From Bacteroidia bacterium (GTDB lineage: Bacteria > Bacteroidota > Bacteroidia > J057), in contig JAWKNL010000032.1 in the NCBI GenBank assembly GCA_041391725.1, forward strand, positions 1,550-65,549: DNA of 64,000 bases, given 5' to 3'. The notes below the pieces were generated by a model that saw only the letters and a program-made list of their open reading frames with translations, was not told where the DNA came from and did no database searches. A program made the position numbers and the translations under genes. Position 1 is the first letter of the stretch. Every line of letters starts with the position of its first letter. This document shows, piece by piece, positions 10,595 through 40,584 of the stretch.

Positions 10595-12101
10595 GTGATC
10601 CCTCAAAAAGTCTATTCGTTGCGATTTCCATTACGCTGGATTTTGGTTTGCCTTCCGGTGCTTTGGGCATGTGGCCTCGGCGACTGGGTAAGTCAGCCGC
10701 CACTGGGTGTACACCAATGGCGGCAGGCCGATGGCGCTGCGATGATGTGGTTTTATTATCAGGGAAATAGCTTTTTTCAGCCTGAAATCTTCAATCTGGA
10801 AACCACTGACTACGGGTATGCGGTGGGAGAACTTCCATTTACCTACTGGATAGCCGGTAAAATTGCTGTTATCACCGGCTGGAATGTCTCCCTGTTGCGC
10901 TGGGTACACCTGGTGATTTTTCTGGCAGGCATCGGGAGCCTCGTATGGATACTGCGTCAGACACCAACCGATCACCTGTTATTAGTTTTGGTGGTAAACA
11001 TATTGGTGAGCACACCTGTAATTGCTTATTACAGCGCCAATTATCTTCCTGACAGCCCGGCACTGAGTCTGGTATTTGTTTCATGGGCATTGTTGTTTCA
11101 GGGATATAGGAGAAATCAGAACAGATGGTTATATGCAGCTGCTGTTGTCGCAGCGCTGGCCGCCTGCTTAAAACTTACCCTGGCGGTAAGTTGGGTAGCG
11201 ACGGCGCTTACATTGGCCTTAGTTCCGGGAAAATTTCAGCACATCAGCACAGCCCTCAGGCGGCATTTTTTGCTGTCAACTTTTTTCTGGGGAATATTGA
11301 TTGCGGGTTGCAGGATATGGATTATGCGGTACAATACCCAATTTGACAGCACCTATTTTCTCGCGTCCCTTCGCCCGGTATGGCAGTACAGTGTTTCAGA
11401 CATTTATAATATTCTGCTGGGTCTGAAGTACGAGTTGAAAGGCATATTATCACCCGGAACAGGCATAGGCATGGCGTGGGTAGTTTATTTGCTGGTGAAA
11501 AACCACAGGCAAATCCATTCCGGACTTTTGGTACTTATCCTGCTGCATATTGCCGGGCTAGTGACAATTGTGTTGTTGTTTTTCAGGATGTACAGGGAGC
11601 ACGACTATTACACGCTGGCACTCTGGGTGTCGCCGGTGCTGATGGTACGACGATCATGCCCGTGATGAGTCAAAGAAAAGTATCATTGGGGTGCTGGTAT
11701 TTTTGCTGATTGTCAATGTCTTGTGGACAAACCGGATATTACATTCCCGGGCAGAAGTTGCGGTTTCGCACCCATTCACTGAGGCCGTGAGGCATGGCAC
11801 AAAAGACCGGGACTGGCTTTCAGGGAATGGAATTGCGCCGGAGGCACGGCTATTTTGTCCGGAGGACCCGTCACCCAACATTCTGCTTTTTGCGCTCAAC
11901 CGGCAGGGCTGGACCGCTTACAATTTTGGCCCCCGGCCAGACAGCGCCGCGCTTGAGAGCTACCGCTCAGAGGAGCTGGAATATCTGGTACTCACAGGCT
12001 CCCGGCATTACACGGGGATATATCCTTCGCTTTTTCCCGGAGAAAGTGATGGAATCGAAGGGATTGTGATTTATGGAGGAGGCGATGGGGAGAGGAAGTA
12101 G
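10595..12101 (+). pseudogene. polytopic membrane protein interrupted by one frameshift near 11640-11690
   Basis: ORFs 10595-11665 and 11691-12101 are both hydrophobic/TM-rich. The downstream frame is already open from about 11641, so they read as one ~500-aa protein with a 1-nt shift. No family assigned. Confidence 0.45.
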
Positions 12102-12119: not shown

Positions 12120-15100
12120 TTAGCCGAGTCCGGGATAGTCAATCATGCGCTTCATCAATTCAATCATGCCTATTTTATACGCTTCGTCAGTTACCCACTT
12201 TTTGTATTCTTCGACATTGGCTTTTCTTTTTGCTAAAAACACTTCGTCCATGATTTTTTTCAAAGCTATCTCGCTGTTCTGCATGTCCGAATTATTTTTC
12301 ACTTTTGATTCATAATCCTTATGCTGGGTTACATTTCTGAAAAAAGAGATTGTCCTGATTCGCGACTCTTCAGGGTTTCATCCCGAGCCTGAGTAAACCT
12401 TTCATTAAATGTCCTGATAATTTCATCCAACGGATCGACTTCTTCCTGCCGCCATGCGCACCTCTGGGGTTGGGATTTTGGGGCTTCTAATTCTGTTTTT
12501 GAATCATCTAACGCAATCGAATGGTTGAGTTTGGTGCGTTCCAATCCGTAAGTGGATAGATCCACCGATTCCAATAATTCGTCAATCAATTCATCTTCTT
12601 TCGTTTTAACAACCAGTTTTGGAATAAGGAATTTTAAAAACCAGAATAGTTTTTCCCCATTCTATTTTTTCATATTCATGATAGATGCCATTTGACCATA
12701 GATTTTTACAAATTGTTTGGCCTTAATCTTAAAGTCTGCTTTTTCATCATCTTCCAGATTTAATCATGGTTGAATCTGTTGGCTGCAACATCAATAAGAG
12801 GACTCAATAATTGCGCATCTACTCCTTCAAAGTACTTTTCTACGAAGGTTTCTACTTCCGCCCATTCGTAAACGCCCACGTCATCCAGTATTCCTTTCAG
12901 TTCATGCAATACATTGATGTCTGTTTCCCGGCTAAGGGTGGTTGATGTATAGAATGGGTCAAAGGAAGCTTATGTCTTCTACTTGATTAAAGAAGTCCAA
13001 AACGAACAGGTCTTCTGTTTTTTACCCAGTTTATCGGTTGCGCGGTTCAACCGGCTCAATGCCTGCACCGCCAATACGCCTTGCAGTTTTTTGTCCACAT
13101 ACATGGTGCAAAGTTTGGGCTGGTCAAACCCGGTCAGAGTTTGTTTGCCACCACCAATAAACGGTAATCGTCTGAATCAAATTTGTCTCTGGTGTCTTTT
13201 TCTGCGAAAAAACCGTTTAAATCTCCTTCGGTGTATTCTACGCCATCGACCGCCTTTGTCCTGAAAATGCAATGGCGATTTTAAACGGATTACCTTTATC
13301 CCTTAAAATGCTTTTGATCGCCAAATAGTAGCGAATGGCCGACTCGATGTTTTGTGTAACCACCATGCCTTTGGCTAAGCCTTTGAGTTTTTGGTAAGTT
13401 GTACACATTGCGGATAAAATGCTCCATCATGATCTCAGCTTTGGTGGCAATGGTGCGTTTATCCCGCCTTGACATAAGCCCGCAATTTTTTTCTGCGCTT
13501 TTCTGTGTCAAAAAGTGGATTGTCTTCTATGGACTTTTCTATTTCATAATAGCTTTTTTTGTAGGTGGTGTAGTTGGCCAGTACATCCAGAATAAAACCT
13601 TCTTCAATGGCCTGCTTCATGGAGTAGAGATGGAAAGGTTTGAAAGAACCGTCTTCCTTGTTTAATGCCAAAACGCCCAGGGTAGCATTTTGGGGGTGGC
13701 TGCAAATGCTAGGTAGCGAGGCATTGCCCTTCATTTTTCGGGCTTTCATGGCTTTCAGATTTTGTTTGTGCATCTTCTTCCTCTTCTTCATTTGCGTCAG
13801 GCCCATGAATTTATTCATATTGTCTGAAGCGATCCGCTTGTGAATCGTGGGTTTTCAATTTGTCAATAATTACGTAAATCGCTTATCACTTAAATCGGCA
13901 ATGCCGTCTACAATAAAAGGAAACTTTTGAATGGTGGTAATGATGATCTTCTTTTGCTGCTCCAGGCTGTCTTTTTAATTCTTTGAGGAAAAAGCCGGGG
14001 CGACAGCTATTCTTGACTTCTGAAATTCTCATCAGCTTCTCGCGTAGTTGTTTGTCCAGCAATCTTCTATCTGTTACCACAATTACCGAATCAAACAACG
14101 GATGCTGAATGCCTTTGGAAACCGGGAAGATCTTCGCTTTCGGGATAGGTTTCTATGAGTTGATAGGCCCAGGTAATAGAGTTGGATTTGCCCGAACCGG
14201 CAGAGTGCTGAATCAAATAGGTATGTCCTACTCCTTTTTGCGAAGCATGGCTCAATATTTTACGCACCACATCTATTTGCATCGGGAAAAATAAGGTGCG
14301 TTTGTTTAAGACATCTGTGGGTTTGCTGTCAAACCGCACAAAGTGCTGGATGATTAATGTGGCTTCATGGCTGAATACTTCTCTCCAAAGATAGTCTGTC
14401 TTATGACCGTGCAAGTAGCGGATTGCCTTGCTCTGTTGTGTCCCTTGCTGAATGGCAGGAAGTAGCGAGTTAGTCTCACAGTTTTGCACGAGAGTATAAT
14501 TCTTCATCTGGTATCTACGTGAAAATGCACAATTACAGCGCCCAAAATTACAATGGTTGCTGTATATTCCGGTCTTCTTTGGTATTGTTTTATGCCATGT
14601 GCCCTGGCAGTTTGCCCTGTCCATGGGTTTTTGAGTTCGAGTTGCGACGATGGCCAAACCATTGACAAATACCACCATGTCGATGCTTTCGCGGTATTTT
14701 CCTGCTGTAGCGAACCTGACGGGTGACGCTGAACTCGTTTTTCTCAAAATTGTCTTTTACCGTCTGGCTGCTGCTGGCCATGGGCAATTGGTAGAGCATG
14801 GTAAAATGGGCATCTTCGACTTCCAGTCCTTTGCGGAGGACACGGAGCACACCGTATTTTTTGACCATGCGGTCATAACGTTCCAGAATTTTGAGTTTCC
14901 AGTCGGATGATCGCTTGAGTTTTTCGAGTTCTTCTGCTTGAGTCGTTTCCAGAAAATGCCAGAAGCGCGTTTCGTCTATGGCGTATTTGGGATTGAAGTC
15001 ATTGGGATTGCCGATGTAATACCCGTTGCCCGAGCGGTAAGGTGCGACAGGCTCACCCATCGCCAGGGTTTCCGGTGTGCGGTTTAGTTCTTCCAGGCAA

Positions 15101-15162
15101 GTGCCGGTTAAGGCTTTTTCTATGGCGGCTTCGAGCGCCCGTTCATTGGTTTGAGAGGGCAT
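12120..15162 (-). pseudogene. hsdR: type I restriction enzyme R subunit, full length but broken by many frameshifts/stops
   Basis: N-terminus MPSQTNERALEAAIEKALTG. Helicase motif I QHSAGSGKSNSITW. FDSVIVVTDRRLLDKQL. C-terminal ...FVLDFFNQVEDI..., DPLDEIIRTFNERF. These pieces lie in at least 8 different frame segments over ~3.04 kb (ORFs 14590-15162, 14091-14747, 13886-14098, 13459-13818, 13296-13511, 12329-12589, 12120-12302, plus unlisted short pieces). Confidence 0.85.
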
Positions 15163-15173
15163 GGATGTATCTG

Positions 15174-16130
15174 TTAGTTTTTCATATGTTTACCAAAATA
15201 CCCAATATGTACTTTCTTCTCTGACGGATCGGGATAAAAGTGGAGCCGGAAGGCTCCGCTGAAGTTCTTGATATGAAAGCCGAAAAACTGCTTTTCTGAT
15301 CCAACTGTAAAGGTTCGCAAATTGCTCAACTTAGGATTGTTTTTCACAGTGTCCGACTCATCAGATATCGTCAATTTCGTTTCAGCCTTGAGCGATGCGA
15401 GCGAAAAATCTTGCCCTTTTTCGCAGTAGTCATTCAAGGCTGTTAATGCGCCATATAGCTGATGATAGACAGTTGTTGAGACAGACATATGCTTAAGTTG
15501 AGATTTTGTTTGTCCGCAGAATACAAGATGAGGAAATTCTGCTTCGCGATTGTCCCAAAGCTCAGATCCTTTTCTCAGGCTGTCCCGCCGCTCTTCGGTT
15601 ATTCGATCTTTAAATACTTGCCACTGAGCAGCAGAGACACAATGGTGGACATCTAAAGCCGCTTCCTGATCTCCATCTGATGTTAATTCCCTATGCCATA
15701 GAGAGATGATCGCCGGTTGCCAGCGGGTGTGGGAGTCAAAACTGAGGGCCAGCTGGCCCAGCAGACTTGCTGCGCCCAATGAGGGTACCGATACGCTCCG
15801 ATCGTCAAAGAGAACAAATTCAGACAATGAAAATCGCTCCGCAATGACGATCTCCTCCTCCGGAATTTGAGGAACAGCAGCTTTCGTGATGAAGGATTTT
15901 ACCTTTCTTTTGTACTCCAACTCCTGCTTCTCAAACCAGGTCCGAAAGGGATATTCTGGAGCGAGGGGTATTTCATACCAGCTTTGGCCAAAACTACCGG
16001 AAAGTAATATGGCTTTGAAATGGCTGTCAAATGCGCTATTGACAATGGCCAGGCATGCAGGAAATTTCTGATCCGCCTCCTGGCGATCGTGATACGGGAT
16101 AGAAGCCTCATTCAGAATCAAATATTCCAT
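15174..16130 (-). CDS. orphan 318-aa protein, third gene of the hsdS-hsdR passenger cassette
   Basis: Intact ORF. ATG lies 8 nt after the ATPase stop, and its stop lies 11 nt before the hsdR ATG. No signal peptide, TM segment or catalytic motif that I recognise. Confidence 0.7.
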   Translation of the reverse strand: MEYLILNEASIPYHDRQEADQKFPACLAIVNSAFDSHFKAILLSGSFGQSWYEIPLAPEYPFRTWFEKQELEYKRKVKSFITKAAVPQIPEEEIVIAERFSLSEFVLFDDRSVSVPSLGAASLLGQLALSFDSHTRWQPAIISLWHRELTSDGDQEAALDVHHCVSAAQWQVFKDRITEERRDSLRKGSELWDNREAEFPHLVFCGQTKSQLKHMSVSTTVYHQLYGALTALNDYCEKGQDFSLASLKAETKLTISDESDTVKNNPKLSNLRTFTVGSEKQFFGFHIKNFSGAFRLHFYPDPSEKKVHIGYFGKHMKN

Positions 16131-16138
16131 AGCAGATG

Positions 16139-17257
16139 TTATTCCAGAAGCAGATCCAATTGTTTATCCCATTCGTCAAAAAAACCATCAGGCCACTCAT
16201 CTGCCCGGCCGGTAGCATCTATATGTATAGGAATAACACGGCTCGAATGATCGGGAGATTCAGCTTCTCGCTGGAAGTAATAGACTTTTGTATCCTCGTG
16301 TGAAAGCACGCCCTGCTTGATAGCCACCCTGATACCGTTCAGGATATGATCGCTGTGCGACTCCAACATAATTTGAGTGCCAGAGGCGGCTGCCAGTGCA
16401 CAAAGACGAGCGATCCTGGCCTGGCCTGCCGGATGCAGGTGCGACTCTGGGTTTTCGATGATCAATAACCCGCCGGGAGGCATCATCAACAATGCAGTGA
16501 TGATGGGCAGTACATAGGTGAGACCAAACCCCACATTGGTCGGTTTAAAACTTTCGGTATATCCGTTCTGTAACTCAAAGCTATAGGACAGGCTGGCAAC
16601 CTCCAGTTTTTCATGATAGGTCGCATTTACTTTTACTCCCGGAGATATTTCTGATAACCAGGCACTTACATTGTCCAGGAGAGTATCAGATTTAGCATCG
16701 GGATGCTGCAAATCCGGATTTGGCAGCGGACGGTTCTGGTGCCGGGCCAGATAATGCACGGTGTATTCGCCCTCTTTGCCCAGGGACACCAAATTATCTA
16801 CATGGTAAGTCGAGGTTTTATACTGCGTTTGCGGATTAATCCGGTTAGCGCCCAGGTAGTGGGTGTTGTCTGAAAACATAAAAGCCGCACCTAAGTCAAA
16901 GTCCTCGCTCCTTTCCCGCTTCGCTAAGGGCAATACATCCTTTTCAGCCGCCTGGTGAAAAGAAACTTCGAGTGTATGTGTATAATCCCACTCCAGCTCA
17001 AATGTTAATAACGCTTCGGCCGGGGCACCTATCGAAAAAACATCCTTGCCAAGGCCCAGGCTGAGCAAGTCATCGTCTTTGAGAAACAATCCCCGCTCAA
17101 AATCGCCGTTTCGCAGCGATTGCTGAAGCAACAACAAGGGCTGAATCGCTGAAGATTTACCTACGGCATTAATACCTGTGAACAGGTTGAGACGACCCAG
17201 TGAAAAGTCACCTTCAAGGATAGACTTAAAGTTCCTGATTTTCAGATTAGTAAGCAT
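16139..17257 (-). CDS. SMC/ABC-like AAA ATPase with DUF3696-type C-terminus
   Basis: NLKIRNFKSI...LFTGINAVGKSS (Walker A), LLIIENPESHLHP (Walker B/D-loop), ESHSDHILNG, C-terminal WPDGFFDEW. Start overlaps the upstream gene by 11 nt. Confidence 0.8.
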   Translation of the reverse strand: MLTNLKIRNFKSILEGDFSLGRLNLFTGINAVGKSSAIQPLLLLQQSLRNGDFERGLFLKDDDLLSLGLGKDVFSIGAPAEALLTFELEWDYTHTLEVSFHQAAEKDVLPLAKRERSEDFDLGAAFMFSDNTHYLGANRINPQTQYKTSTYHVDNLVSLGKEGEYTVHYLARHQNRPLPNPDLQHPDAKSDTLLDNVSAWLSEISPGVKVNATYHEKLEVASLSYSFELQNGYTESFKPTNVGFGLTYVLPIITALLMMPPGGLLIIENPESHLHPAGQARIARLCALAAASGTQIMLESHSDHILNGIRVAIKQGVLSHEDTKVYYFQREAESPDHSSRVIPIHIDATGRADEWPDGFFDEWDKQLDLLLE

Positions 17258-18356
17258 GGCCTGTATATTGGGTGATCAGTTTTTGTAACTCCCGGTGGCG
17301 CAACACTACGCTTTCCACCCGGTTGGTATTGGCCGTAATCGCAGCCTCAAAGTCTGGCTTACGCATCATGCCCAGGTAGCCAGAGATAAAGGCTTCTTTT
17401 TGGGACAGCAGTCGCTCCATCCCGGCATCTGTCAGATGGGCAAGATTTACCGCAGTCGTTTCAAACAGCGAGCGGTTGATCACGGGCTTGCCTTCCGGAT
17501 GGAGCAGCGCCTTGCTAAACATGTTCTGACCGAATAGCTGGTCGGCACGAACCAAGCTCCGGTGACAGGCTGCTGCCCATGCTGAACGCTCGGCATCGGT
17601 CGCTACCTCGTTGAGGTGCTCCATTTCCTCATCCAGAAACATACGCAGCGAAGGCTGATACTCGGCAGGTCCTCGCCGGTAGAAGGCAATAAACCTCAGC
17701 AACAATTCCCGGTCCAGCATACGCTTAGGCGATACCCCCAGATACTGTCTGAACCACGGCTCTTCGGCCACCTGATTCAAAAACCGGGTGGCAGGCCCCT
17801 GGTTCAGGGCATGCCGGATCTCCTGGGCGGTCATCTTGAGGCCCGCAGTATTGATACGATAAAACAGGTTCGTAAGCACTTTTTTAGGGGTGCCCTTCCT
17901 GATTTTAAAGAGCGTTACCTGGGTCCCTTCGATGCGGCGCTGCAAGGTGCGGTCCAGGCCGTCGTATTTTTTCCCTTCCAGCTCCTTCAAAAACTCCATG
18001 TGGCTCAGTTTCAGGTTTTTGTCCACCATAAACCGTTTAAAAGTAGAGAGCCGCTGTAAGCCATCCACCACCACCCATTTGTCGTCATTGGCTACGTCCA
18101 TGTAAAAAGCGGGAAGAGGAAGCTTGATCAGGATAGACTCGATAAGCTGGCTCATGCGCGTATTGTCCCACAGATTGGTGCTGCGCTGAAACTCAGGAAA
18201 GAGGTCTATTTCACCATGTCGGATCCTGTCCACCAGCGTAGCAACAGTGGCAGGCTCGACCGTAATGTCCACCTGCTTAGGGTCAAACGGAACCTGGATG
18301 GTAAACTCTCCTTCCTGATCGTCCTCTATGTCAAGGTATAGTTCGTTTTCTTTCAT
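17247..18356 (-). CDS. DUF262 (GmrSD N-terminal / ParB-Srx fold) protein without a DUF1524/HNH half
   Basis: IDLFPEFQR, VVVDGLQRLSTF (DGQQR motif), FYRINTAGLKMTAQEIRHAL. The helical C-terminal ~170 aa has no His-Me/HNH motif. Confidence 0.8.
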   Translation of the reverse strand: MKENELYLDIEDDQEGEFTIQVPFDPKQVDITVEPATVATLVDRIRHGEIDLFPEFQRSTNLWDNTRMSQLIESILIKLPLPAFYMDVANDDKWVVVDGLQRLSTFKRFMVDKNLKLSHMEFLKELEGKKYDGLDRTLQRRIEGTQVTLFKIRKGTPKKVLTNLFYRINTAGLKMTAQEIRHALNQGPATRFLNQVAEEPWFRQYLGVSPKRMLDRELLLRFIAFYRRGPAEYQPSLRMFLDEEMEHLNEVATDAERSAWAAACHRSLVRADQLFGQNMFSKALLHPEGKPVINRSLFETTAVNLAHLTDAGMERLLSQKEAFISGYLGMMRKPDFEAAITANTNRVESVVLRHRELQKLITQYTGHAY

Positions 18357-18391
18357 GCCTTAGGGGGTACTCATCGTATAGGTAAAGATAA

Positions 18392-19765
18392 TCAAGATTG
18401 GGAAGTTTCATCCGTCACTTTTATTTTCCCCGTCACCGCACTATCGATCAGCGTGGCTTTGTATTCCTTGAGTTTTTCGATCTGGGTCTGCTGGAGGGTG
18501 ATGGCCTGGTCGATTTTGGCGGATTGGGTTTCGATGTGGGCGACGATTCCTAATTGCTCATTCTGAGGCGGAAGTACTGTTTGCAATTGTTTGAATTCAT
18601 CCCAATAAAGCCTTTTTCTAAAGTCTGTAATTCCCTTTGAATTTCTATTCATTTGCTGAATAAAAGAGTCAGTTCTATACTGATATTCAAAATATGATGC
18701 CACGATCTTTTTGTTAGGTTTTGCCACTACATAGGCAGGACTTACCATACCCTCAACACGAACCGCTCCAATTGCTCCTTGCCAGGCTCTCATCATATTA
18801 AAAACAATATCATTTATCGCTACATACTTGTAATTACTCTTGTCTTCAATCTTAATTAGCCCACGAATATTATCTTCATCAGATAATTCCTCAGAAGAAA
18901 CGGCTGAGTGAATAGAAACAGATAACAGTGGTAAATCCTCTCTGCCTGGTTCTTTTCGTTCTTTGAATAATATTCTGTTGGCTACCACCTCCCATCCCAC
19001 CGGAATCTGCCCAATCCATTCCACGCCTGAGTCTTTGAGTTTTTCTTTGGGAGTCATTGACCATTGACCATTCACCATTGACCATTTCCCCGTTACGGCA
19101 TTTTGGATGAGGATCTGTTTGCGTTCTTTGAGCAGGGCGATGAGTTTTTCTTTTTGGGTGATGGCCTGGTCTATTTTGGCGGTTTTGTCGTCGAGGAAGT
19201 TGGCGATGGCGGTTTGCTCTTCGGCATTTGGAAACCAAAAAGTAACGGTCTTTAATAATGTTTGGGTAATACTAAATACTTTAACCCCTTTAACTCGCGA
19301 TCTTATTTGATTGCGGAAACTTTGAGAAGTAATTACATAAGCTGCAAACCTTTCATTAACATGTATTTTTAATCTTGCTATTACAGTATGATAACCGGCA
19401 AATGTGCTTAGGTCACTATTCAAATAAGTGAAGTTCCCAGACCCTTCAATATCTTCAGATGTATCTGCGAAAACAAAATCTCCTTTACTAAGTAGTGAGT
19501 TCGAATCACTAAGCAAATATTCCTCGCTTACACATTTCAACTCATGAATTTCAGGATTGACTTCAAACCCAAATTTTGAATGTATTTCCCCATAATTGAC
19601 ACAATAAACGCCTTCCTCTTGTAGGTTTTCCTTCGTTATCGTTAAGCCCTTGCTGAAAGAGAAAATGTTTCTTAGGCGACTAACCTCCCAATGCTCCGGA
19701 ATCTCCCCGAGCCATTGCACGCCCGAATCTTTATATCGATCATATTTTTTAAACTGCATCATCAT
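18392..19765 (-). CDS. hsdS: type I R-M specificity subunit, two TRDs, intact
   Basis: Two half-repeats, each starting KDSGV(Q/E)W(L/I)G.IP..WEV. Conserved helical spacers (FLDDKTAKIDQAITQKEKLIALLKERKQ.. and KIDQAITLQQTQIEKLKEYK..). Start taken at the ATGATGATG cluster. Confidence 0.85.
   Translation of the reverse strand: MMMQFKKYDRYKDSGVQWLGEIPEHWEVSRLRNIFSFSKGLTITKENLQEEGVYCVNYGEIHSKFGFEVNPEIHELKCVSEEYLLSDSNSLLSKGDFVFADTSEDIEGSGNFTYLNSDLSTFAGYHTVIARLKIHVNERFAAYVITSQSFRNQIRSRVKGVKVFSITQTLLKTVTFWFPNAEEQTAIANFLDDKTAKIDQAITQKEKLIALLKERKQILIQNAVTGKWSMVNGQWSMTPKEKLKDSGVEWIGQIPVGWEVVANRILFKERKEPGREDLPLLSVSIHSAVSSEELSDEDNIRGLIKIEDKSNYKYVAINDIVFNMMRAWQGAIGAVRVEGMVSPAYVVAKPNKKIVASYFEYQYRTDSFIQQMNRNSKGITDFRKRLYWDEFKQLQTVLPPQNEQLGIVAHIETQSAKIDQAITLQQTQIEKLKEYKATLIDSAVTGKIKVTDETSQS
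19055..19089. repeat. heptanucleotide tandem repeat inside hsdS (CATTGAC x2, CATTCAC, CATTGAC, CATTTCC)
   Basis: Read directly. Encodes the GKWSMVNGQWSM linker between the central helix and TRD2. Confidence 0.9.
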
Positions 19766-19798
19766 TAGCAATTGACCATTAACAATTAACCATTAAAA
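19764..19798. repeat. heptanucleotide repeat (CATTAGC AATTGAC CATTAAC AATTAAC CATTAAA) overlapping the hsdS start
   Basis: Read directly. Same 7-nt register and family as 19055-19089 and the start of the 39173 array. Confidence 0.8.
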
Positions 19799-19858
19799 AA
19801 TCCATTCCACGCCGGAGTCTTGGTAAGCAGGATAGCTTGGGTAGTTATGCGTCGTCAT
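19793..19858 (-). pseudogene. 21-codon relic of an hsdS N-terminus (MTTHNYPSYPAYQDSGVEWIF*)
   Basis: 19799-19823 matches 19013-19037 (start of TRD2) at 23 of 25 nt. The reading frame is cut off by the heptamer array. Its ATG is embedded in the RayT 3' end. Confidence 0.55.
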
Positions 19859-20507
19859 GGTCGGGATTGTTTGGGTGATAGCGGTCGTCTCCCCAGCGTT
19901 GGGGATTTTGCCGGATATAGAATTCGACGCGGTCATAAGAGGCCTGGTCGCGGATGATGTGGTCATAAAACCGTTCCTGCCAGTTAAAATCAGGGGTGGT
20001 TTTCCTGATTTCAAAGGTACAGCGCCCCTTGTACCAGCGCATCACGCGGGATAGGTTGTCGTACAGCATGGGGTTGTGGTGGCCGGTGATGCCGCCGGGA
20101 TCACGGACGGTTGTATGATCCGTAGAGACGCGATTAATCGCGTCTCTACCAGGCGGATCATCAGGATGATCGATGATCACGATGCCGTGGATGTGATTGG
20201 GCATCACGACCCATTCCCCCAGACGGGCATAGGGAAATCGTTCGGGGATTTCCTGCCAGTGCCGTGCCGCGATTTCGCCTGGTTCGGACAATTGGACGCG
20301 GAATTGGGTTGGGTCGGTTGGTTCCGTTGGTAGAGACGCGATTAATCGCGTCTCTACAGGGGGATCGGTGATTGGTACGACGTCCGCGAAATGACACCGG
20401 TGGTCTATGACGCAAATGGTGACAAAATAGGCGGCGTTCCAGCCGTAGTCCCACCAAGGGGCACGGGCGGAGGGGATTCGGTATTTGCCGTTGAATTTTT
20501 CTGCCAT
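19845..20507 (-). CDS. REP-associated tyrosine transposase-like (Y1/HUH, IS200-like fold)
   Basis: YFVTICV, HUH motif MPNHIHGIV, NLSRVMRWYKGRCTFEIRK, WQERFYDHIIRD, catalytic-Tyr region FYIRQNPQRW. ATG lies 2 nt after the hsdM stop. Confidence 0.8.
   Translation of the reverse strand: MAEKFNGKYRIPSARAPWWDYGWNAAYFVTICVIDHRCHFADVVPITDPPVETRLIASLPTEPTDPTQFRVQLSEPGEIAARHWQEIPERFPYARLGEWVVMPNHIHGIVIIDHPDDPPGRDAINRVSTDHTTVRDPGGITGHHNPMLYDNLSRVMRWYKGRCTFEIRKTTPDFNWQERFYDHIIRDQASYDRVEFYIRQNPQRWGDDRYHPNNPDHDDA
20122..20149. repeat. 28-bp perfect palindrome GTAGAGACGCGATTAATCGCGTCTCTAC (copy 1)
   Basis: Read directly. Lies in the RayT ORF and is translated as RDAINRVST. Confidence 0.95.
20330..20357. 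repeat. 28-bp perfect palindrome GTAGAGACGCGATTAATCGCGTCTCTAC (copy 2)
   Basis: Identical to copy 1. Lies in the RayT ORF but is read in another frame as VETRLIASL. Both copies are preceded (coding sense) by GATCC(G/C)CCT. Confidence 0.95.
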
Positions 20508-20509
20508 GT

Positions 20510-22843
20510 CTATTTCCCTAAAATGTCCCTGATCAGTCCATCGCTTTCTTTGTCCAGCGCCAGGATTTCGGCGCTGACTTCCTCTATACTCCGCAGGGGC
20601 TTATGCTGGTAGAAGTATTTATTGAAGCTGATTTCATAACCGATTTTGGTTTTGTCGAGGTCGATCCAGGCTTCGGGCACGTGGGGTTTTACCTCGCGCA
20701 GGAAATAATCGTAGATGCTTTCTTCCAGCGGCACATTTTCGCTGTCGCGGAGGTCGGTTTGGTTTTCGTAAATGATGTATTCGTCCCTGTTTCCGCTGGG
20801 GTAGTATCCAAAGTCAGGCAATTGCGCCACCGTACAATCGAGGTGAAACAGGAGTTGGTCAAGTTTCTCACCACTGAGCTTTTGGGTTTTTTTGATCACC
20901 TTTTCAGCACTTTCATCATACCAGCTCACAGCTTGCAGGATGGCATTTTTTTCACTGGCAGAAAGTTTGGATTTACTCGCTTTGAGGTTCATCATCCACC
21001 CATTTGGCAAACACATTAAAATCGCTGTATTCCTGGTTGCCAATGGTTTCCATCAGTTTTGTGGCAGTGTTTAATATTTCTTTTTGTTTTTTCCATGTAG
21101 CAGCAGACGTGAGGGTTTTGCGCTTTTTGGCGTTCAGATCGATGTCGTTTTTCTCGCACCATTCCGGGAGTGCTTTTTCAATAGACTTCAGGTCTGAATA
21201 CACCTTTTCGCCAAAGGTTTCCAGGCCCATTGCATCGGTTCTTTGAGTGTTTTATCGAATCGAAGATCCGCAATACGTTCGGTAAACTGCGCTTTCAGTC
21301 TCGCCGGGCGGTCAATGGTTACTTTATAATATAAATCACTGTTGTTAAATACTATGGCGGCCAGGCCGTCTTCGCCTTGCCGCTCAATTGTTTCAAAATT
21401 CAGATACGCATCCTGGATTTCTTTGATGTGCTGTGGGCTCAATTCACAGTTTTTGTTACCCAGGTTTTTGCGCAGTTTGGCAAAACGTTGGGAAGCATCA
21501 ATGAGCAATACTTTGCCTTTACGCTTAGTTTCTTTATTGTTATGCAATAGCCAGATATACGTAGTAATACCTGTATTATAAAACAGGTTGTTGGGGAGTT
21601 GGATGATGCAGTCCAGCCAATCATTTTCAATGATGTATCTTCTGATATTGCTTTCCACCACCGGCATCACCCGTAAACAGACTGGAACCATTGTGTACCA
21701 GGCAATACGCGAACCCAGTGGGCTTTGGTGGAGGGGCTTCATTTTATTGACCATCTCCATCAGGATGAGCAATTGCCCGTCAGACGAACGAGGGGTAGCA
21801 TCCGCTTCTTCTGCATTATCCCAATAATCTTTTAGGGTAACCACAAAGCAGGGTCAATGATGCTGTTGCCGTCTTTGATGTATTTTACTTCGCTGCTCCA
21901 GGACTTGCCATAGGGTGGATTGGAGAGCATGAAGTCGAAATTGTGGCCGGAAAACTCATCGGTGGAAAGGGTAGAACCCACGCGGATATTTTCAGGGTTG
22001 TTGCCCTTAATCATCATATCCGATTTGCAAATGGCGTAGGTTTCGTCATTGATTTCCTTGCCGTATAAATACACATCACCCTTAGCACGGATTTCGCCTT
22101 CTTCGTCTTTGATGAAATTCTGCGATTCAGTCAGCATGCCACCCGAACCACAAGCTAGGTCGTAGATGGTCATCACCGGCGGCAATTGATCTTTGATCGG
22201 GTCAAACACAATATGGGTCATCAGATCAATTACTTCACGGGGCGTAAAGTGTTCTCCGCTTCTTCGTTGTTTTCTTCGTTGAATTTTCGGATAAGCTCTT
22301 CAAAGACATACCCCATTCCGAGATTGGAAAGAAGGGGTTGTTTTCTTCCGTCAGGGTCTTCTTTTCAAAAGGAGTGAGGTTGATGTGAGGAGAAGTGAAT
22401 TTTTCAAGGACATCGAGAAGCACATCTTTTGAAGCCATGTGCCGGATCTGACTTTTGAGCTTAAATTTCTCAATAATTTCCTTCACGTTTTGGCTAAAGC
22501 CATTGAGATATTCTTCAAAGTTGGCTTGCAAAATTTGCTGGCTGTTGGTAGCAGTTTCACATAGTCTTTGCAAAGTCCATTCGCTGGTATTGTAAAATAC
22601 ATAGCCACTTGCATCGCGCAGGCCCGCTTCGTCACATTCAGCAAGGCCGACTTCGTCTCGTTGGAAAGCGAATTCTTCCAAAACGGCTTCTTTGGTAGGT
22701 TCGAGCAAAGCATCTAATCTTCTCAAGACTACCATGGGCAGAATAACGTCTCTGTATTTCCCTCTTACATATACGTCTCTAAGACAATCGTCCGCTATGG
22801 ACCAGATAAAGGATATCAGTCTATTGTGTACAGATTGGTTCAT
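20510..22843 (-). pseudogene. hsdM: type I R-M DNA methyltransferase subunit, broken by multiple frameshifts
   Basis: HsdM_N start MNQSVHNRLISFIWSIADDCLRDVY..VILPMVVLRRLD. GEHFTPREVIDLMTHIV. DLACGSGGML (motif I). FDFMLSNPPYG (motif IV). NNLFYNTGITTYIWLL. C-terminal GYEISFNKYFY. These are spread over at least 6 frame segments (ORFs 22235-22843, 21832-22221, 21188-21844, 20973-21230, 20510-21043). Confidence 0.85.
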
Positions 22844-23751: not shown

Positions 23752-24057
23752 TCAGACGGGCATATCCATTTCGTGAAGAACCAGAACGATGAGTACCCGG
23801 TCGCGGAAAACCTGGAAAATGACCACAAATTCTTCGGCAATGATAGCTTCACGGTAGTCACCGGCGCCGAGTTTTATGGTTTCACAGAGGGGAAACTGCT
23901 GGGGGAAGCGGGGGATTTCATCAAAACCCACGTCCAGAAAATCGTTGATAAACAACTCTGCTTCTGCATTTTCACCTTCGGACAAAAAGTAATTATAAAT
24001 TTCTGCGACCTGTAAGCTTGCAGTTTTGGTCAGGACAACTTTTCTTTTTGCCGCCAT
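23752..24057 (-). CDS. ParE/RelE-superfamily toxin
   Basis: ~100 aa with a ParE-like pattern (A..QV.EIYNYF......AE.F...F......I..FP..FP.......YRE......FVVIFQV..D.V.IV.VLH). Confidence 0.6.
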   Translation of the reverse strand: MAAKRKVVLTKTASLQVAEIYNYFLSEGENAEAELFINDFLDVGFDEIPRFPQQFPLCETIKLGAGDYREAIIAEEFVVIFQVFRDRVLIVLVLHEMDMPV

Positions 24058-26883: not shown

Positions 26884-28265
26884 TTACCCGACCATGTGCT
26901 CGGGAACGACGATTCTGTCAAACTCATCTTCTGTCAGATAACCCAGTTTTATTGCGGTTTCCTTCAGCGTCGAATTTTCGGCGTAAGCGGTTTTTGCAAT
27001 TTTAGCGGCCTTATCGTAACCGATATGCGTATTCAGCGCAGTAACCAGCATCAGGGAGTTGTTGAGGTTTTGCCTGATTCTTACATAGTTGGGTTCGATA
27101 CCGACAGCGAGGTGATCGTTGAATGATTCACAGGCGTCTCCCAGAATGCGGGCCGACATCAGGAGATTGTAAATCATGACCGGCTTAAACACATTCAGTT
27201 GAAAATGGCCGTGTGTACCGGCTACGGCTACGGCAGCATCATTGCCGATAACCTGGGCACAAACCATTGTCAAAGCTTCTGCCTGGGTAGGGTTTACTTT
27301 TCCGGGCATAATGGAGCTGCCGGGTTCATTTTCGGGGATGAGGATTTCGCCGATACCGCAACGGGGCCCGGAGGCGAGGAGGCGGATATTATTGGCGATA
27401 GCCATGAGGCTCACTGCCGCGCGACGGAGTGCGCCCGAAGCCTCCACGACGGCGTCGTGGGCTGAAAGCGCCTCATATTTGTTGGCAGCGGTGACAAAAG
27501 GATGGCCCGAAAGTTCTGCGATCACAGCGGCAACCCGCGCTGCATATCCTTTGGGGGTGTTGAGCCCGGTGCCGACTGCAGTGCCGCCCAGCGCCAGTTC
27601 GGTCAGGTGGCGGAGACTGTCTTCGATGGTCTCCATGCTGCGCTGCAATTGCATAGCATAACCCGAAAACTCCTGCCCCAGGGTCAGTGGCGTGGCATCC
27701 ATCAGGTGGGTACGACCGATTTTCACCACTTCCATAAACGCCTGTGATTTGGCACTCAGGGTTTCCTGAAGTTTTTGATACGGGGAAGGGTATGCGTGGC
27801 AATCAGATCATAAGCCGCAATATGCATGGCCGTAGGGAAGGTGTCGTTGGATGACTGCGATTTGTTGACGTCATCATTGGGGTGAATGGGCGTTTTGCTA
27901 CCCATTTCTCCGCCCAGTATCTCAATGGCCCGGTTGGAAATTACCTCATTCACATTCATGTTGGACTGGGTTCCCGACCCGGTCTGCCACACTACGAGGG
28001 GAAAATGGTCGTCGAGTTTCCCGGCCAGAATTTCGTCGCAAACCTGCGAAATGACTTTTGTTTTATCTGCCGAAAAACCGGCAAGCTCAGTATTGGTGAT
28101 AGCTGAGGCTTTTTTCAGAATGGCGAATGCGCGGATAAGCTCAATGGGCATCCGGTGGCCGCCAATTTTGAAGTTTTCTACTGAACGCTGGGTCTGAGCG
28201 CCCCAATACTTGTCTGAGGGAACTTTTACTTCCCCCATTGTGTCCTTTTCTATTCTATAGCTCAT
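26884..28265 (-). pseudogene. fumC: class II fumarate hydratase split by a single -1 nt event at a homopolymer
   Basis: N-terminal ORF 27756-28265 ([28 protein letters not shown]...) and C-terminal ORF 26884-27735 ([35 protein letters not shown]). The frame [22 protein letters not shown] continues upstream if the T5 at 27772-27776 were T6. Confidence 0.85.
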
Positions 28266-36701: not shown

Positions 36702-37736
36702 TTACCTGCTTACCCTTCCCGATCCGTCGCCTTCCATCAGCTTTTCGACTTCGTCAACGGTTACCATATTAAAGTCGCCGTGAATCGTATGCTTCAGACA
36801 TGACGCAGCAACCGCAAAATCGAGCGCTTTCTGGTCGTCGCCTGTATAAGTGAGCAATCCGTAAATCAGCCCTCCCATAAACGAATCTCCCCCGCCGACA
36901 CGATCCACAATATGGGTTATCTGGTAAGTTGGGGCGCTGAAAAGTTGTTTTCCGTCCCAAAGTACGCCTGACCAGCTATTGTGTGAAGCAGAAACAGAAC
37001 CGCGAAGGGTAATGATCACTTTCTTTGCCCGGGGAAACCGCGCCATCAGTTGTCGTCCTACCGATTCGTAAGCCTCGCCTTCGACGTGCCCGCTGGTTAC
37101 GTCCACGCCTTCGGGGTGAATGTTGAATACTTTTTCGGCATCTTCTTCATTCCCCAGGATAATATCACACCCTTCTACCAGTTCGGCCATGACTTCGCTG
37201 GCTTTTTTGCCGTATTTCCAAAGGTTTTTGCGGTAATTGAGGTCCGTAGAAACAGTAACGCCCATACGGTTGGCCGTCTGAATGCCTTCCAGACACACAT
37301 CGGCTGCACTCTGGGAAATGGCGGGGGTAATTCCTGTCCAGTGAAACCAGCCTGCATCGGCCAGTACACTTTCCCAGTCGATCATGCCTTTCTTTATTTC
37401 TGCGATAGATGAATGCGCCCGGTCATAAACGACTTTGCTTCCGCGGCTGACGGCTCCGTGTTCGAGGAAATAAATGCCCAGCCTTTCTCCGCCAAAGATG
37501 ATATGGTTGACGCCGACATTGTACTTGCGGAGGTTGGCTACGGCAGCATGCCCCAGATCGTTGTTGGGGAGTCGGGTGACATATTCGGTGGGGATTCCAT
37601 AATTGGCAAGGGAAACCGATACGTTGGATTCGCCACCTCCATAGGTAGCTTCAAATGTTGACGCCTGCACAAACCGCTGAAAGCCCGGTGTAGAGAGGCG
37701 AAGCATGATTTCGCCAAAGGTTACTACTTTTTTCAT
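36702..37736 (-). CDS. kdgK: 2-dehydro-3-deoxygluconokinase (PfkB family)
   Basis: MKKVVTFGEIMLRLSTPG..RF.QA..FE.TYGGGESNV, C-terminal DRVGGGDSF motif. Genomic context with uxuA. Confidence 0.85.
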   Translation of the reverse strand: MKKVVTFGEIMLRLSTPGFQRFVQASTFEATYGGGESNVSVSLANYGIPTEYVTRLPNNDLGHAAVANLRKYNVGVNHIIFGGERLGIYFLEHGAVSRGSKVVYDRAHSSIAEIKKGMIDWESVLADAGWFHWTGITPAISQSAADVCLEGIQTANRMGVTVSTDLNYRKNLWKYGKKASEVMAELVEGCDIILGNEEDAEKVFNIHPEGVDVTSGHVEGEAYESVGRQLMARFPRAKKVIITLRGSVSASHNSWSGVLWDGKQLFSAPTYQITHIVDRVGGGDSFMGGLIYGLLTYTGDDQKALDFAVAASCLKHTIHGDFNMVTVDEVEKLMEGDGSGRVSR

Positions 37737-37745
37737 TATTGTATG

Positions 37746-39164
37746 TTAAAGCCTTCTGATTTTGATACTGCGATAATGTACTTCATCTCCATGGTCCTGA
37801 AGGAGAATATGGCCGCTTTGCCAGTTGCCAAAATCCTTCCATTCTGCGTATTTGCTTCGCGCAACTAACGCGCCAAAAGCCTGGTCTCCGCGCTCATAAG
37901 ACAAAACTTTCCGGTGGTTGAGCCAGTGCTCGACATGCGCGCCCTTAAATTCGGTTTTTTCCAGATTATTTCCCTTTGGCCATTCCTCTACCCTTACACC
38001 ACTTACCACGATACGGGCATGGTTCCACTGCCCGGGTTCGTTTACGATTTTTCCCTTGTTGGCGGGAATAAGGTCGTAAAGGGAGGCAATTGTACGGTTT
38101 CCTGCAGAGCCCATGGCCGCATCGGGGTGTTTGGCATCATCGAGTATCTGATATTCAAGCCCGATCGCCGAACCTGCATTGGGATTGTTTTTGAGGTATT
38201 GTTCGGTGATAAAATATTTGATCCCGCTGTTGGCTCCGGGGGTAATCATAAATTCGAGTTCAAGCTCGAAAGTGCTGTATTCATCAACCGTGACCACATC
38301 TCCGCCGTTTTGTGATTCGGCTCCTTTTCCGCCCATGACGATGAGTTCGCCGTTTTCAACTTTCCAGCCTTTAGCCGGAAATTGTGTTTTGTGCGCGCCA
38401 CGCCAGCCGTTGGTAGTTTTTCCGTCAAACAACAACTGCCATCCCTGCGCTCTTTCCTGAGGCGAAAGGTAATTGGGCACATTGTTGACGATGTGGATAT
38501 CGGTCCAGGGACTGGGCTTGAGGTTTTCGGTCTGGATAAAAATATTTCTCCATTTGATCTGCCTTCCTTCCGGATCTTCTTCTCTGATGGCATGCACCTG
38601 AAGGGCGATAAAACCTTCTGCTGTCATGTCGTCGATAAGATCAGCGGCAGGGATGCCATTCACCCAGGTGCGGATAGAGTTGCCGATAGCTTCGATGCGG
38701 TAATGGTTCCACTGGTTGTTTTTGAAAGCCGTGCGCGCACCGGGATTGTGATCCATAGGGTAAAGCCATCCGCGGCGGGCTTCATCGTAAATGCCGCCAC
38801 TCCATCCTCTTTCAGAAGGATCGATTTCTACCTGATAACCATGCACCCTCCCTTCTTTATATTCGGGGAGGCTGTTGGAGCGAATCTGAATTCCGGAATT
38901 CATTTCGGGATCCACCCAGAATTCCAATTCCAGAATAAAATCGCTGTACATTTTTTCGGTAACCATAAAGCTGTTGGGCGTGCCGCGTACGGTTGTTCCC
39001 ACAACGGCGCCATCTTCAACGGCATATTTTGCCTGCCCGTTGAGTTGTTTCCAGCCTGTAAAATCTTTTCCATTAAACAAAGCCTTCCATTCTCCCTGCC
39101 CGAAAACAGAAAAAGAAAGACATAGAAAAAGTGTGATCAGGGGGGAAATTCGAAAATGTCGCAT
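37746..39164 (-). CDS. secreted protein with two DUF1080 (3-keto-disaccharide hydrolase-like) domains
   Basis: Signal peptide. Two copies of W..LFNGKD..GW...G...Y.VEDG... FE..FEF..... NSGI. ending LQDHGDEVHYRSI. Confidence 0.75.
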   Translation of the reverse strand: MRHFRISPLITLFLCLSFSVFGQGEWKALFNGKDFTGWKQLNGQAKYAVEDGAVVGTTVRGTPNSFMVTEKMYSDFILELEFWVDPEMNSGIQIRSNSLPEYKEGRVHGYQVEIDPSERGWSGGIYDEARRGWLYPMDHNPGARTAFKNNQWNHYRIEAIGNSIRTWVNGIPAADLIDDMTAEGFIALQVHAIREEDPEGRQIKWRNIFIQTENLKPSPWTDIHIVNNVPNYLSPQERAQGWQLLFDGKTTNGWRGAHKTQFPAKGWKVENGELIVMGGKGAESQNGGDVVTVDEYSTFELELEFMITPGANSGIKYFITEQYLKNNPNAGSAIGLEYQILDDAKHPDAAMGSAGNRTIASLYDLIPANKGKIVNEPGQWNHARIVVSGVRVEEWPKGNNLEKTEFKGAHVEHWLNHRKVLSYERGDQAFGALVARSKYAEWKDFGNWQSGHILLQDHGDEVHYRSIKIRRL

Positions 39165-39172
39165 AGTAGTAG

Positions 39173-39354
39173 TTAATTGTTAATGGTTAATGGATGTTGG
39201 CTTTTGGTTTTTGGCTGTTGGCTGTTGGCTGTTGGCTGTTGGCTTTTGGTTTTTGGCTGTTGGCTTTTGGTTTTTGGCTGTTGGTTTTTGGCTGTTGGCT
39301 GTTGGCTAATAGCTAACGGCCAAAAGCTAATAGCTAATAGCTAATAGCTAAAGG
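39173..39354. repeat. 26 contiguous heptanucleotide units in perfect 7-nt register
   Basis: TTAATTG, TTAATGG x2, ATGTTGG, then CTGTTGG/CTTTTGG/TTTTTGG x15, then CTAATAG/CTAACGG/CCAAAAG/CTAAAGG x7. The last two units supply the final codons and stop of uxuA. Confidence 0.95.
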
Positions 39355-40543
39355 CTCGTTTGATTCCCAGTTCGAGGCCGCGAAGTTCGGCGAGGCCGCG
39401 GAGTCTTCCGATGGCTGAGTAGCCGGGGTTTGTCTTTTTGTGGAGGTCGTCGAGCATAAGATGGCCGTGATCAGGGCGCATGGGTATGAGCGAGTCTTTT
39501 CGTCCACTATTTTTTCTTTTGGTTTCTTCTTCTACGAGCGCCTTTATCACTTCGTACATATCCACGTCGCCGTCGAGGTGATCGGCTTCGAAAAAATTGC
39601 CTTCTGCATCGCGCCGGGTGCTTCTGAGGTGGATAAAGTGAATACGGTCGCCCAGCCTTTTTACCATGCCGGCAAGATCATTGTCGTCTCTCACGCCATA
39701 GGAGCCGGTACAGAAAGTAAGTCCGTTGGCGGGAGAATTAACTGCATCCAGCAAAAACCGCGCATCGCGTTCGGTACTTACAATCCGGGGCAGTCCCAGA
39801 ATGGAAAAAGGCGGGTCGTCGGGGTGAATGGCCATTCGCACGCCGGATTCTTCAGCGACGGGGACAATTTCACCGAGGAAATAGGCGAGATTTTCACGAA
39901 GCCTGTCCTCGTTTACATCGTGATAGGCATTCAGTACCGTTTGCAACTGATCAAGGGTATAACCTTCATCTGAGCCGGGAAGCCCGGCAATAATATTTTG
40001 CTGAAGCTGCACTTTGTCGGCTTCGGTCAGTTGGTCAAATTTATCTTTTGCCTTCCGCCGTTCTTCTTCTGTGTATAGATCCTCCGCTCCCGGTCTTTTC
40101 AACATATACAGCTCAAAAGCGGCAAAGGCCATACGGTCAAACCGAAGCGCTTTTGATCCGTCGGGTACTTCGTAGAGGAGGTCGGTGCGGGTCCAGTCGA
40201 GGACAGGCATAAAGTTGTAACAGACAATATGCACGCCGCAGGCAGCGAGGTTGCGGATGCTTTGTTTGTAGTTTTCGATCATCCGTTTCCGTTCGGGGCT
40301 GCCCGTTTTGATCGGGTCAGGTACGGGGATACTTTCCACCACTTCCCAGGAAAGGTTGCGGGGTTTATTTTTTACCTCATCCCATTCGATCATGCGTTTG
40401 CGAAGATTGATTTCTTCGACAGACCATACTTCCCCGTTGGGGATATGGTGGAGGGCAGTTACAATACCGGTTGCACCGGCCTGCATGACATCGGATAGGC
40501 TCACAGGGTCTTTGGGGCCATACCATCGCCAGGATTGAAGCAT
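39341..40543 (-). CDS. uxuA: mannonate dehydratase
   Basis: [40 protein letters not shown]..., canonical UxuA N-terminus and length. Confidence 0.9.
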
Positions 40544-40584
40544 AATTGAAACGAATTAAAAAATGAATAAAGTAAAAATAATCG

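Follow-up and report, generated by a model that had tools for sequence, protein, structure and literature searches.

A complete Menshen (NsnABC) gene set lodged in a decayed type I restriction–modification operon of a Bacteroidia bacterium

We analysed a 64,000-nucleotide stretch of DNA (hereafter the window) from a Bacteroidia bacterium of the GTDB lineage J057 (GenBank assembly GCA_041391725.1, contig JAWKNL010000032.1, positions 1,550 to 65,549 of the forward strand), and in it a compact three-gene cassette that belongs to the Menshen (NsnABC) family of anti-phage systems. The genes nsnA (17247..18356, 369 amino acids), nsnB (16139..17257, 372 amino acids) and nsnC (15174..16130, 318 amino acids) follow one another in that order on the minus strand. 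The first two overlap by 11 nucleotides (17247-17257), and a spacer of 8 nucleotides (16131-16138) separates the second from the third. The cassette sits inside a type I restriction–modification (R-M) operon: the nsnA ATG lies 35 nucleotides beyond the stop codon of hsdS (open reading frame (ORF) 18392..19771), and 11 nucleotides lie between the nsnC stop codon and the ATG at 15162 that opens the first fragment of hsdR. A first-pass annotation of this DNA had described three packed minus-strand ORFs between hsdS and a fragmented hsdR. We recover the same coordinates, overlap and spacers, and all of the peptide motifs that it quoted are present in the translations.

For system assignment the three proteins were compared with PADLOC profile models, and for domains with Pfam and NCBIfam. 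Each is a full-length member of its Menshen family with the signature motifs intact. The first gene product matches NsnA (PDLC03877, 5.2e-116; residues 9-366 against positions 25-384 of the 385 in the model), the second NsnB (PDLC03878, 4.4e-115; residues 1-371 against positions 1-343 of 345) and the third NsnC (PDLC03879, 6.4e-58; residues 4-317 against positions 5-304 of 305). The third also matches PDLC03912 (2.6e-50) and, overall, seven NsnC models besides PDLC03879. Matches to the runner-up systems are far weaker (PD-T4-2_A, 9.2e-34; HEC-03B, 1.3e-39). The first-pass annotation had suspected Menshen, and rightly so. Its suggestion of novelty, which it had itself tied to the trio not being a complete and already characterised system, falls away, and the full-length Nsn matches rule out a novel system with an unknown effector. 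As a system there is nothing new here: the cassette has the commonest architecture of a family already named and catalogued, of which it is a canonical member.

NsnA carries a GmrSD_N/DUF262 domain (6.7e-20, residues 39-183), which is its sole Pfam family at E<=0.1, and the motifs QRSTNLW at residue 57 (with a spacer one residue longer), DGLQR at 98 and FYRIN at 165. None of the three cassette proteins has a DUF1524/HNH match in Pfam. The earlier description of the first gene as a DUF262/GmrSD-N protein that lacks the DUF1524/HNH half is thus confirmed, and a GmrSD-type enzyme is ruled out. With GmrSD, SspE and BrxU the protein shares the DUF262 NTPase module and the QR..W, DGxQR and FxxxN motifs, as well as a helical domain after DUF262 (PMC12065111). 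In those enzymes the DUF1524/HNH nuclease is fused, whereas the effector predicted in the window is a separate protein that would be reached through an ABC ATPase. NsnA matches other DUF262 models in PADLOC far more weakly than NsnA models. Only 38 residues precede DUF262, leaving the protein with no extra N-terminal sensor domain, and the system is accordingly of Type I in the classification of Li et al. 2025, who name the C-terminal helical region ParBDB (PMC12065111).

NsnB matches AAA_21 (4.6e-23), AAA_15 (2.9e-17) and, over residues 319-368, DUF3696 (8.5e-17) in Pfam, as expected from its first description as an SMC/ABC-like ATPase with a DUF3696 tail. Its motifs comprise Walker A GINAVGKS at residue 28, GFG at 243, LLIIEN at 264, SHS at 300 and WPDGFF at 355, and in its Walker B variant EN replaces DE, as Li et al. 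(PMC12065111) give for NsnB. It is an ABC/OLD-type ATPase with a DUF3696 tail and the predicted transducer that would hold NsnC. When the PDB was searched by sequence with NsnA, NsnB and both the full-length and the C-terminal profile of NsnC, no structure of a Menshen or BECR protein came up, and the single match was an OLD-family ATPase for NsnB (6e-5). In NCBIfam the cassette proteins gave only sub-threshold ATPase matches. Weak PADLOC matches of NsnB to AriA (6e-22), GajA (2e-10) and Old models recall PARIS (AriA/AriB), Septu (PtuA/PtuB) and Gabija (GajA), in which an OLD/ABC-type ATPase oligomer likewise controls a nuclease effector. These systems have no dedicated DUF262 sensor, and their effectors are Toprim or HNH nucleases, in contrast to the predicted BECR-like RNase module of Menshen, where NsnC is predicted to dock via the DUF3696 tails. 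PD-T4-2, HEC-03 and PDC-M55 also have related DUF262 and DUF3696-ATPase parts (NsnB against PDC-M55A, 1e-26). Their scores lie 70-80 orders of magnitude below those of the Nsn models, and no PADLOC model of PD-T4-2, HEC-03 or PDC-M55 matches the third gene product.

That third protein had been left as an orphan with no recognisable motif. It does indeed have no Pfam and no NCBIfam match, and its separated halves retrieve nothing meaningful from Pfam at E<=10; the label of orphan does not stand, given the full-length match to NsnC. Our search gave 55 NsnC homologues, among them an identical hypothetical protein of a Bacteroidia bacterium MAG (R3C61_25790), and an exhaustive profile search gave 2571 representatives of 50%-identity clusters at E<=1e-3. 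Nearly all of the best matches listed are full length, at about 310-325 amino acids. The size and lengths of this family therefore mark a common NsnC type.

The AlphaFold2 (AF2) model of full-length NsnC (predicted local distance difference test score, pLDDT, 93.5) shows a strand/helix N-terminal domain that a long helical linker connects to a C-terminal module of helices plus a sheet. The N-terminal domain (15636..16130, minus strand; about residues 1-165) alternates strands (E) and helices (H) in the order E3-6, H16-35, E40-42, E55-57, H62-82, H94-101, E103-107, H116-124 and E127-129. Among 50 homologues it has no invariant acidic residue, and its first strand ends at Asn7. We take this strand end, occupied by Asn7 in NsnC, to be the position of the first catalytic Asp in PIN domains. 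The domain probably corresponds to the inactive PIN (inPIN) domain of Li et al. 2025, which lacks the D-E-D-D catalytic residues and to which NsnB docking and target recognition are ascribed (PMC12065111). According to the same source, inPIN subfamilies are numbered 1-35, the NsnC N-terminal domain is fast-diversifying, and it is joined to one of 15 effector families, of which the PB-BECR1 RNase, RelE/YafQ-like with an H-R-H triad, is the commonest.

The C-terminal effector module (15174..15533, minus strand; about residues 200-318) runs from helices into a strand sheet and, modelled alone, reaches a pLDDT of 92. Eight of the 11 residues that are invariant among the 50 homologues fall in the last 61 positions: E258, S259, R272, H286, R295, Y311, G313 and H315. 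In Foldseek searches of the PDB with the full NsnC and C-domain models, HigB, RelE and YoeB recur (best probability 0.66-0.72, template-modelling (TM) score about 0.45-0.58, E 0.3-2) and are the sole recurring matches of coherent fold; a search of viral structures with NsnC gave nothing coherent. H286, R295 and H315 fit an H-R-H effector of the RelE/YafQ-like (BECR) RNase type, a prediction from sequence for which the fold matches are weak. The earlier remark that the effector is not obvious needs revision: the third gene is nsnC, and these invariant residues fit the BECR RNase described for the family.

The coverage of the PADLOC NsnC models is uneven, in that several match just the C-terminal 60-190 residues whereas PDLC03879, PDLC03912 and PDLC03895 match the N-terminal domain. 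This fits one effector module shared by variable N-terminal domains. A word-indexed search with a C-domain profile returned only 10 short fragments and no link to the Solibacillus silvestris protein. Elsewhere, a 592-amino-acid protein of Streptomyces sp. CAU 1734 (locus L025, 8456-10234) bears an NsnC-like C-terminal module on an unrelated N-terminus, with the signature ES..V, R, H, RLHF and GYLGKHLP, and neither NsnA nor NsnB is detectable near it. Such an arrangement is typical of a portable toxin domain. At two further actinobacterial loci (L027 and L028) the match is likewise limited to the C-terminal module.

What has been published on Menshen gives these assignments their meaning. Li et al. 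2025 (Nucleic Acids Research, PMC12065111) dissected the family bioinformatically, catalogued 1997 operons and proposed NsnA as sensor, NsnB as transducer and NsnC as effector, with an NsnB4-NsnC2 complex, joined via the DUF3696 tails in a Gabija-like tetramer geometry, that is solely an AlphaFold 3 prediction. Millman 2022, as cited in PMC12065111, showed that the S. silvestris system gives protection from T2, T4, T6 and Fado. In comparison with the Menshen of S. silvestris StLB046 and the catalogued operons, the cassette in the window is alike in its genes, their order and Type I form, and also in its nuclease-free NsnA with DUF262 and a C-terminal helical domain, its NsnB with EN Walker B, GxG and DUF3696, and its two-domain NsnC with a putative H-R-H effector module. 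Only the host, the setting among hsdM and hsdR pseudogenes and the altered last residues of NsnC differ. The first-pass view of a three-component, NTP-dependent defence module that a type I R-M operon carries as a passenger holds.

We envisage a mechanism in which NsnA would sense invading phage DNA through its ParB-like DUF262 NTP-binding domain and C-terminal DNA-binding domain, and would thereby switch the nucleotide state of the NsnB ABC-ATPase oligomer. The DUF3696 tails of NsnB may hold the NsnC N-terminal domain, so that NsnC would be released or allosterically activated after the switch. Its RelE/YafQ-like module, with H286, R295 and H315, could then cleave RNA and halt translation of phage messages, host messages or both, so that infection would be aborted or the phage inhibited directly. 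All of this would proceed without the R-M enzyme. Alternatively, Menshen could be a split, type IV-like restriction system in which NsnA, like the DUF262 part of GmrSD, SspE and BrxU, recognises modified phage DNA and the effector degrades DNA rather than RNA. In GmrSD and SspE it is DUF262 that senses DNA modification (PMC12065111), the glucosyl-hydroxymethylcytosine (glucosyl-hmC) phages T2, T4 and T6 are among those that the validated system resists, and other NsnC variants bear Toprim or PLD-type nucleases (PMC12065111) that could act on DNA. Counter to this, DUF1524/HNH occurs in none of the three proteins, NsnC has the H-R-H signature, and its coherent fold matches are only to ribosome-dependent RNase toxins. 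The sensing half of the type IV-like scheme is compatible with an RNase mechanism, the target being the sole difference, and we consider the type IV-like explanation very improbable.

The state of the surrounding operon contrasts with that of the cassette. As reference we used locus L001 from a related metagenome-assembled genome (MAG; GCA_033764335.1), where hsdM (781 amino acids), a 244-amino-acid ORF, hsdS, nsnA, nsnB, nsnC and hsdR (1017 amino acids) occur in the same order and are all intact. Indels and nucleotide identities were taken from MAFFT nucleotide alignments with this locus, and reading frames were tracked by tblastn with its proteins. In the window hsdS is a full-length ORF, and hsdM and hsdR are multiply frameshifted. 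The hsdR pseudogene (12120..15162, minus strand) is broken into at least 8 ORF fragments: residues 1-1016 of the L001 protein are covered only by hopping among three frames, with about 35 indels whose lengths are not multiples of 3, a nucleotide identity of 71% and a GC content of 0.431 against 0.487 in the intact orthologue. The hsdM pseudogene (20510..22843, minus strand) lies in 5-6 ORF fragments that still match HsdM_N (2e-25, fragment 22235-22843) and N6_Mtase (6.9e-23, fragment 21832-22221) in Pfam and MTase_I (3e-53) in PADLOC, with frame changes of -1/-3/-2/-1. It has about 7 frameshifting indels, 78% nucleotide identity and a GC content of 0.446 against 0.502. The longest surviving pieces of the two genes measure 218 amino acids.

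Within the cassette, nsnA (93.2% nucleotide and 93.8% amino acid identity) and nsnB (94.0% nucleotide identity) have no indels relative to L001, and nsnC is free of them except in its last codons. The ratio of nonsynonymous to synonymous substitution rates (dN/dS), an average over both lineages, is 0.13 for nsnA and nsnB and 0.23 for nsnC. The GC content of the pseudogenes is down by about 5.6 points relative to their intact orthologues, and that of the nsn genes is unchanged. If indels had accumulated in the 3183-nucleotide cassette as densely as in hsdM (3.0 per kb), it should hold 9.5 of them; under a Poisson model the chance of finding none is about 7e-5. General assembly noise was considered as the source of the frameshifts and rejected: ORFs of 750-1050 amino acids are intact elsewhere in the window, and the broken genes are more diverged and AT-drifted, although fumC is also split and a PMT_2-like gene may be. 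The earlier picture of an intact cassette amid a shredded hsdR and hsdM is thus correct for nsnA and nsnB and needs a qualification for nsnC, the 3' end of which has lost 13 nucleotides. Its corollary of a cassette maintained without regard to restriction is supported by the indels, the GC content and the dN/dS and weakened by that same deletion and by the averaging of dN/dS over two lineages.

Looking across related loci, homologues of the three genes do co-occur, as the first-pass idea of a functional unit demands. In 18 independent related loci with enough sequence, nsnA, nsnB and nsnC are collinear and in the same order, and these loci come from Bacteroidota, Desulfobacterota, Alpha- and Gammaproteobacteria and the archaeal Methanosarcinaceae. 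The hsdS-nsnABC-hsdR placement recurs at L001, in the Bacteroidota contigs L007 and L009 and in Desulfobacteraceae L019, and at most related loci (for example L004, L008, L011-L016, L018 and L020-L026) tblastn detected no type I genes within 10 kb, a search that gives a lower bound. L019 (Desulfobacteraceae MAG JABZFQ010000054, 5420-15103) belongs to a very different type I family, its HsdM being 28% identical. There the order is hsdM, hsdS and nsnA, nsnB is deleted, and a 130-amino-acid C-terminal fragment of nsnC is followed by two ORFs and then one that resembles hsdR. Menshen has decayed there amid R-M ORFs that look intact, the reverse of the window. In a Bacteroidales MAG (CAXXXS010000001; locus L013, 10001-11878), a probable insertion element of about 0.9 kb, with an oppositely oriented ORF of 271 amino acids, breaks nsnC after residue 202, and the C-terminal part of the gene resumes at 11525. 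The recurrent type I placement is itself already on record, since 27.9% of Menshen operons adjoin BREX, type I or III R-M systems or methylases (PMC12065111, Fig. 7D).

This placement could mean that Menshen guards or backs up the type I enzyme, or once did, being silenced by HsdMSR and triggered by anti-restriction, in the manner of PrrC and EcoprrI, so that its function would be bound to the R-M operon. PrrC joins an N-terminal ABC/AAA_13 ATPase and a C-terminal anticodon nuclease in a single polypeptide, which the R-M enzyme keeps silent. Like PrrC, RloC and the rlo genes, the cassette is a passenger of an hsd operon and couples an ABC-type ATPase to an effector that here is predicted to cleave RNA; it differs in comprising three proteins and in outliving the R-M enzyme. 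The AAA_13/PrrC families are absent from the Pfam matches and the top PADLOC matches of the cassette proteins. Arguing for a guard, the placement recurs at the four loci named above, the 35- and 11-nucleotide junctions make co-transcription with hsdS and hsdR likely, and more than a quarter of the catalogued operons have R-M-like neighbours. Counter to this, the genes for the R-M enzyme in the window are dead and Menshen is intact; if HsdMSR were the silencer, its loss should make Menshen toxic and select against it. At most related loci no type I genes were detected within the 10 kb searched, in S. silvestris the validated system functioned as an operon of just the three genes (PMC12065111), and the reverse pattern at L019 suggests that the two modules decay independently. 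Taken together, the window, L001 and L019 indicate functionally independent modules, which counts against a PrrC-like guard, and we judge that explanation highly improbable.

Comparison with L001 in sliding windows of 150 nucleotides also revealed a sharp mosaic. A block of at least 90% nucleotide identity (15290..18440) coincides with the Menshen cassette, starting in the last 50 nucleotides of hsdS and stopping near the nsnC stop codon. Identity in the block is 0.88-0.97 except for a dip to 79-81% at 15737-16036, over the NsnC N-terminal domain, and outside it falls to 0.62 or less towards hsdS and to 0.67-0.79 towards hsdR. Synonymous divergence (dS) between the two MAGs is 0.20-0.23 for nsnA and nsnB and 0.37 for nsnC, in comparison with 1.0-2.1 for housekeeping genes. 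The island is not syntenic between them. The genes for PfkB, a 3-keto-disaccharide hydrolase and an SDR protein (window 36702-41400; L001 14211-18828) directly follow hsdR in L001 and lie about 21 kb from the island in the window, where the orientation of the island is opposite. Given this difference in place and orientation and the low dS of the nsn genes, the island is younger than the split between the species. The flanks have diverged beyond neutral decay since the split of nsnA and nsnB, which is compatible with recombination at the level of the cassette, and the block is a putative unit of recombination or transfer. Menshen might then be an exchangeable block that can outlive its host operon and that passes from one type I R-M operon to another at the hsdS-hsdR junction; homologous recombination via the conserved hsdS 3' and hsdR 5' ends would be a possible route. 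As a speculative extension, hsdS may be kept for the sake of Menshen, either because it carries the promoter or because it is a partner in DNA recognition. In the very different type I family of L019, too, this junction is occupied. We hold this scenario as tentative and on the whole rather unlikely.

Our preferred reading, which we consider likely, is that the cassette is a complete Type I Menshen anti-phage operon, a passenger in a type I R-M operon of an uncultured Bacteroidia bacterium, that acts through an RNase effector and independently of that R-M system. Several points weigh against it. Among the top 50 Foldseek matches of the NsnC model there is no PIN structure. In searches of the PDB with the full NsnC and C-domain models no match reaches E<=0.001, all having E>0.1, and the BECR assignment of the C-terminal domain finds no sequence-profile match to solved BECR proteins or Pfam. 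We found no experimental mechanism, biochemistry or solved structure for any Menshen protein in the literature or the PDB, and the mechanism is inferred from the proposals of Li et al. 2025, every signalling step being an analogy to GmrSD/SspE, Gabija, Septu and PARIS. The 13-nucleotide deletion at the nsnC 3' end replaces LPTAT by MKN directly after the invariant His315 and so strips a conserved Leu-Pro tail, which could impair the effector. The dN/dS values span both lineages and are no proof of selection after the R-M genes decayed, and a recent recombinational replacement of the block could account for its intactness. With hsdM dead, nsnABC may not be expressed, and a scan for sigma-70-like promoters and for terminators gave matches at chance level, with a model that excludes Bacteroidota promoters.

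Several of these points would also suit a less favourable explanation, namely that the cassette is an unexpressed remnant, recently recombined in and not kept by selection. The sharply bounded block is younger than its flanks and, on dS, far younger than the genomic background; nsnC already bears a frameshifting deletion; hsdM lies dead upstream, and the scan, its model leaving Bacteroidota promoters outside, found no promoter; and elsewhere in the window fumC is split and a PMT_2-like gene possibly so. Against a remnant, the catalytic and nucleotide-binding motifs are all intact, and 3.18 kb run without an internal stop or frameshift. The dN/dS of 0.13-0.23 indicates constraint over the period that gave 6-12% nucleotide divergence. 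The changed tail retains His315, and one homologue (P0052) ends in GKHL, a single residue past that histidine. We think it very unlikely that the cassette is such a remnant.

The neighbouring genes show further signs of rearrangement. The hsdS ORF (18392..19771, minus strand; 459 amino acids) matches Methylase_S in Pfam (5.3e-16) and Specificity_I in PADLOC (3.7e-96, residues 3-455). It is full length although, at the indel density of hsdM, it should have gained about 4 indels; on a Poisson model the chance of its having none is about 0.016. HsdS is 37% identical in amino acids to its L001 counterpart, and the target-recognition domains differ; this level of identity suggests recombination in hsdS. 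A remnant of an older start (MTTHNYPSYPAYQDSGVEWIF, ending in a stop codon) lies at about 19797-19857, just upstream of the present ORF. A 23-nucleotide segment at 19799-19821 is 96% identical to mid-gene positions 19013-19035, and heptamer-like (CATTGAC)n runs flank both copies (19760-19860 and 19013-19100). The 5' end of hsdS thus appears rearranged.

Between hsdM and hsdS lies a second passenger ORF (19845..20507, minus strand; 220 amino acids) that resembles an IS200/RAYT-type Y1 transposase, with a Pfam match to Y1_Tnp (1.1e-3) below the cut-off. It is 62% identical in amino acids to the 244-amino-acid orthologue at the same position in L001. Within it, a perfect 28-nucleotide palindrome, GTAGAGACGCGATTAATCGCGTCTCTAC, occurs in two in-frame copies (20122-20149 and 20330-20357; 0 expected by chance) and nowhere else in the window; its core is also found twice in the L001 ORF. 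About 0.9 kb beyond the hsdM pseudogene is an ORF for a ParE-family toxin (23752-24057, minus strand; ParE_toxin in Pfam, 8e-6), and the 300- and 787-amino-acid ORFs beside it match no Pfam or PADLOC family. The gene for class II fumarase, fumC (26884-28265, minus strand), is spread over two ORFs in different frames, one of 169 amino acids (Lyase_1 positions 1-139) and one of 283 (Lyase_1 151-312 and FumaraseC_C), so that this housekeeping gene is either truly broken or wrongly assembled. At 10595-12101 on the plus strand, directly beside the remains of hsdR, a PMT_2-like membrane glycosyltransferase ORF (356 amino acids) is followed after 25 nucleotides by an ORF of 136 amino acids, and the two may be one frameshifted gene.

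These loci amount to a natural experiment. One lineage has an intact hsdM-hsdS-nsnABC-hsdR operon, its sister has lost hsdM and hsdR and kept Menshen, and the Desulfobacteraceae locus shows the reverse. The window and L001 form a convenient starting pair for testing the autonomy of Menshen systems embedded in R-M operons, and H286, R295 and H315 are concrete targets for mutation of the predicted RNase effector. The contrast between lineages suggests that R-M-embedded Menshen is independent of the R-M enzyme and is inherited or exchanged as a unit of its own.

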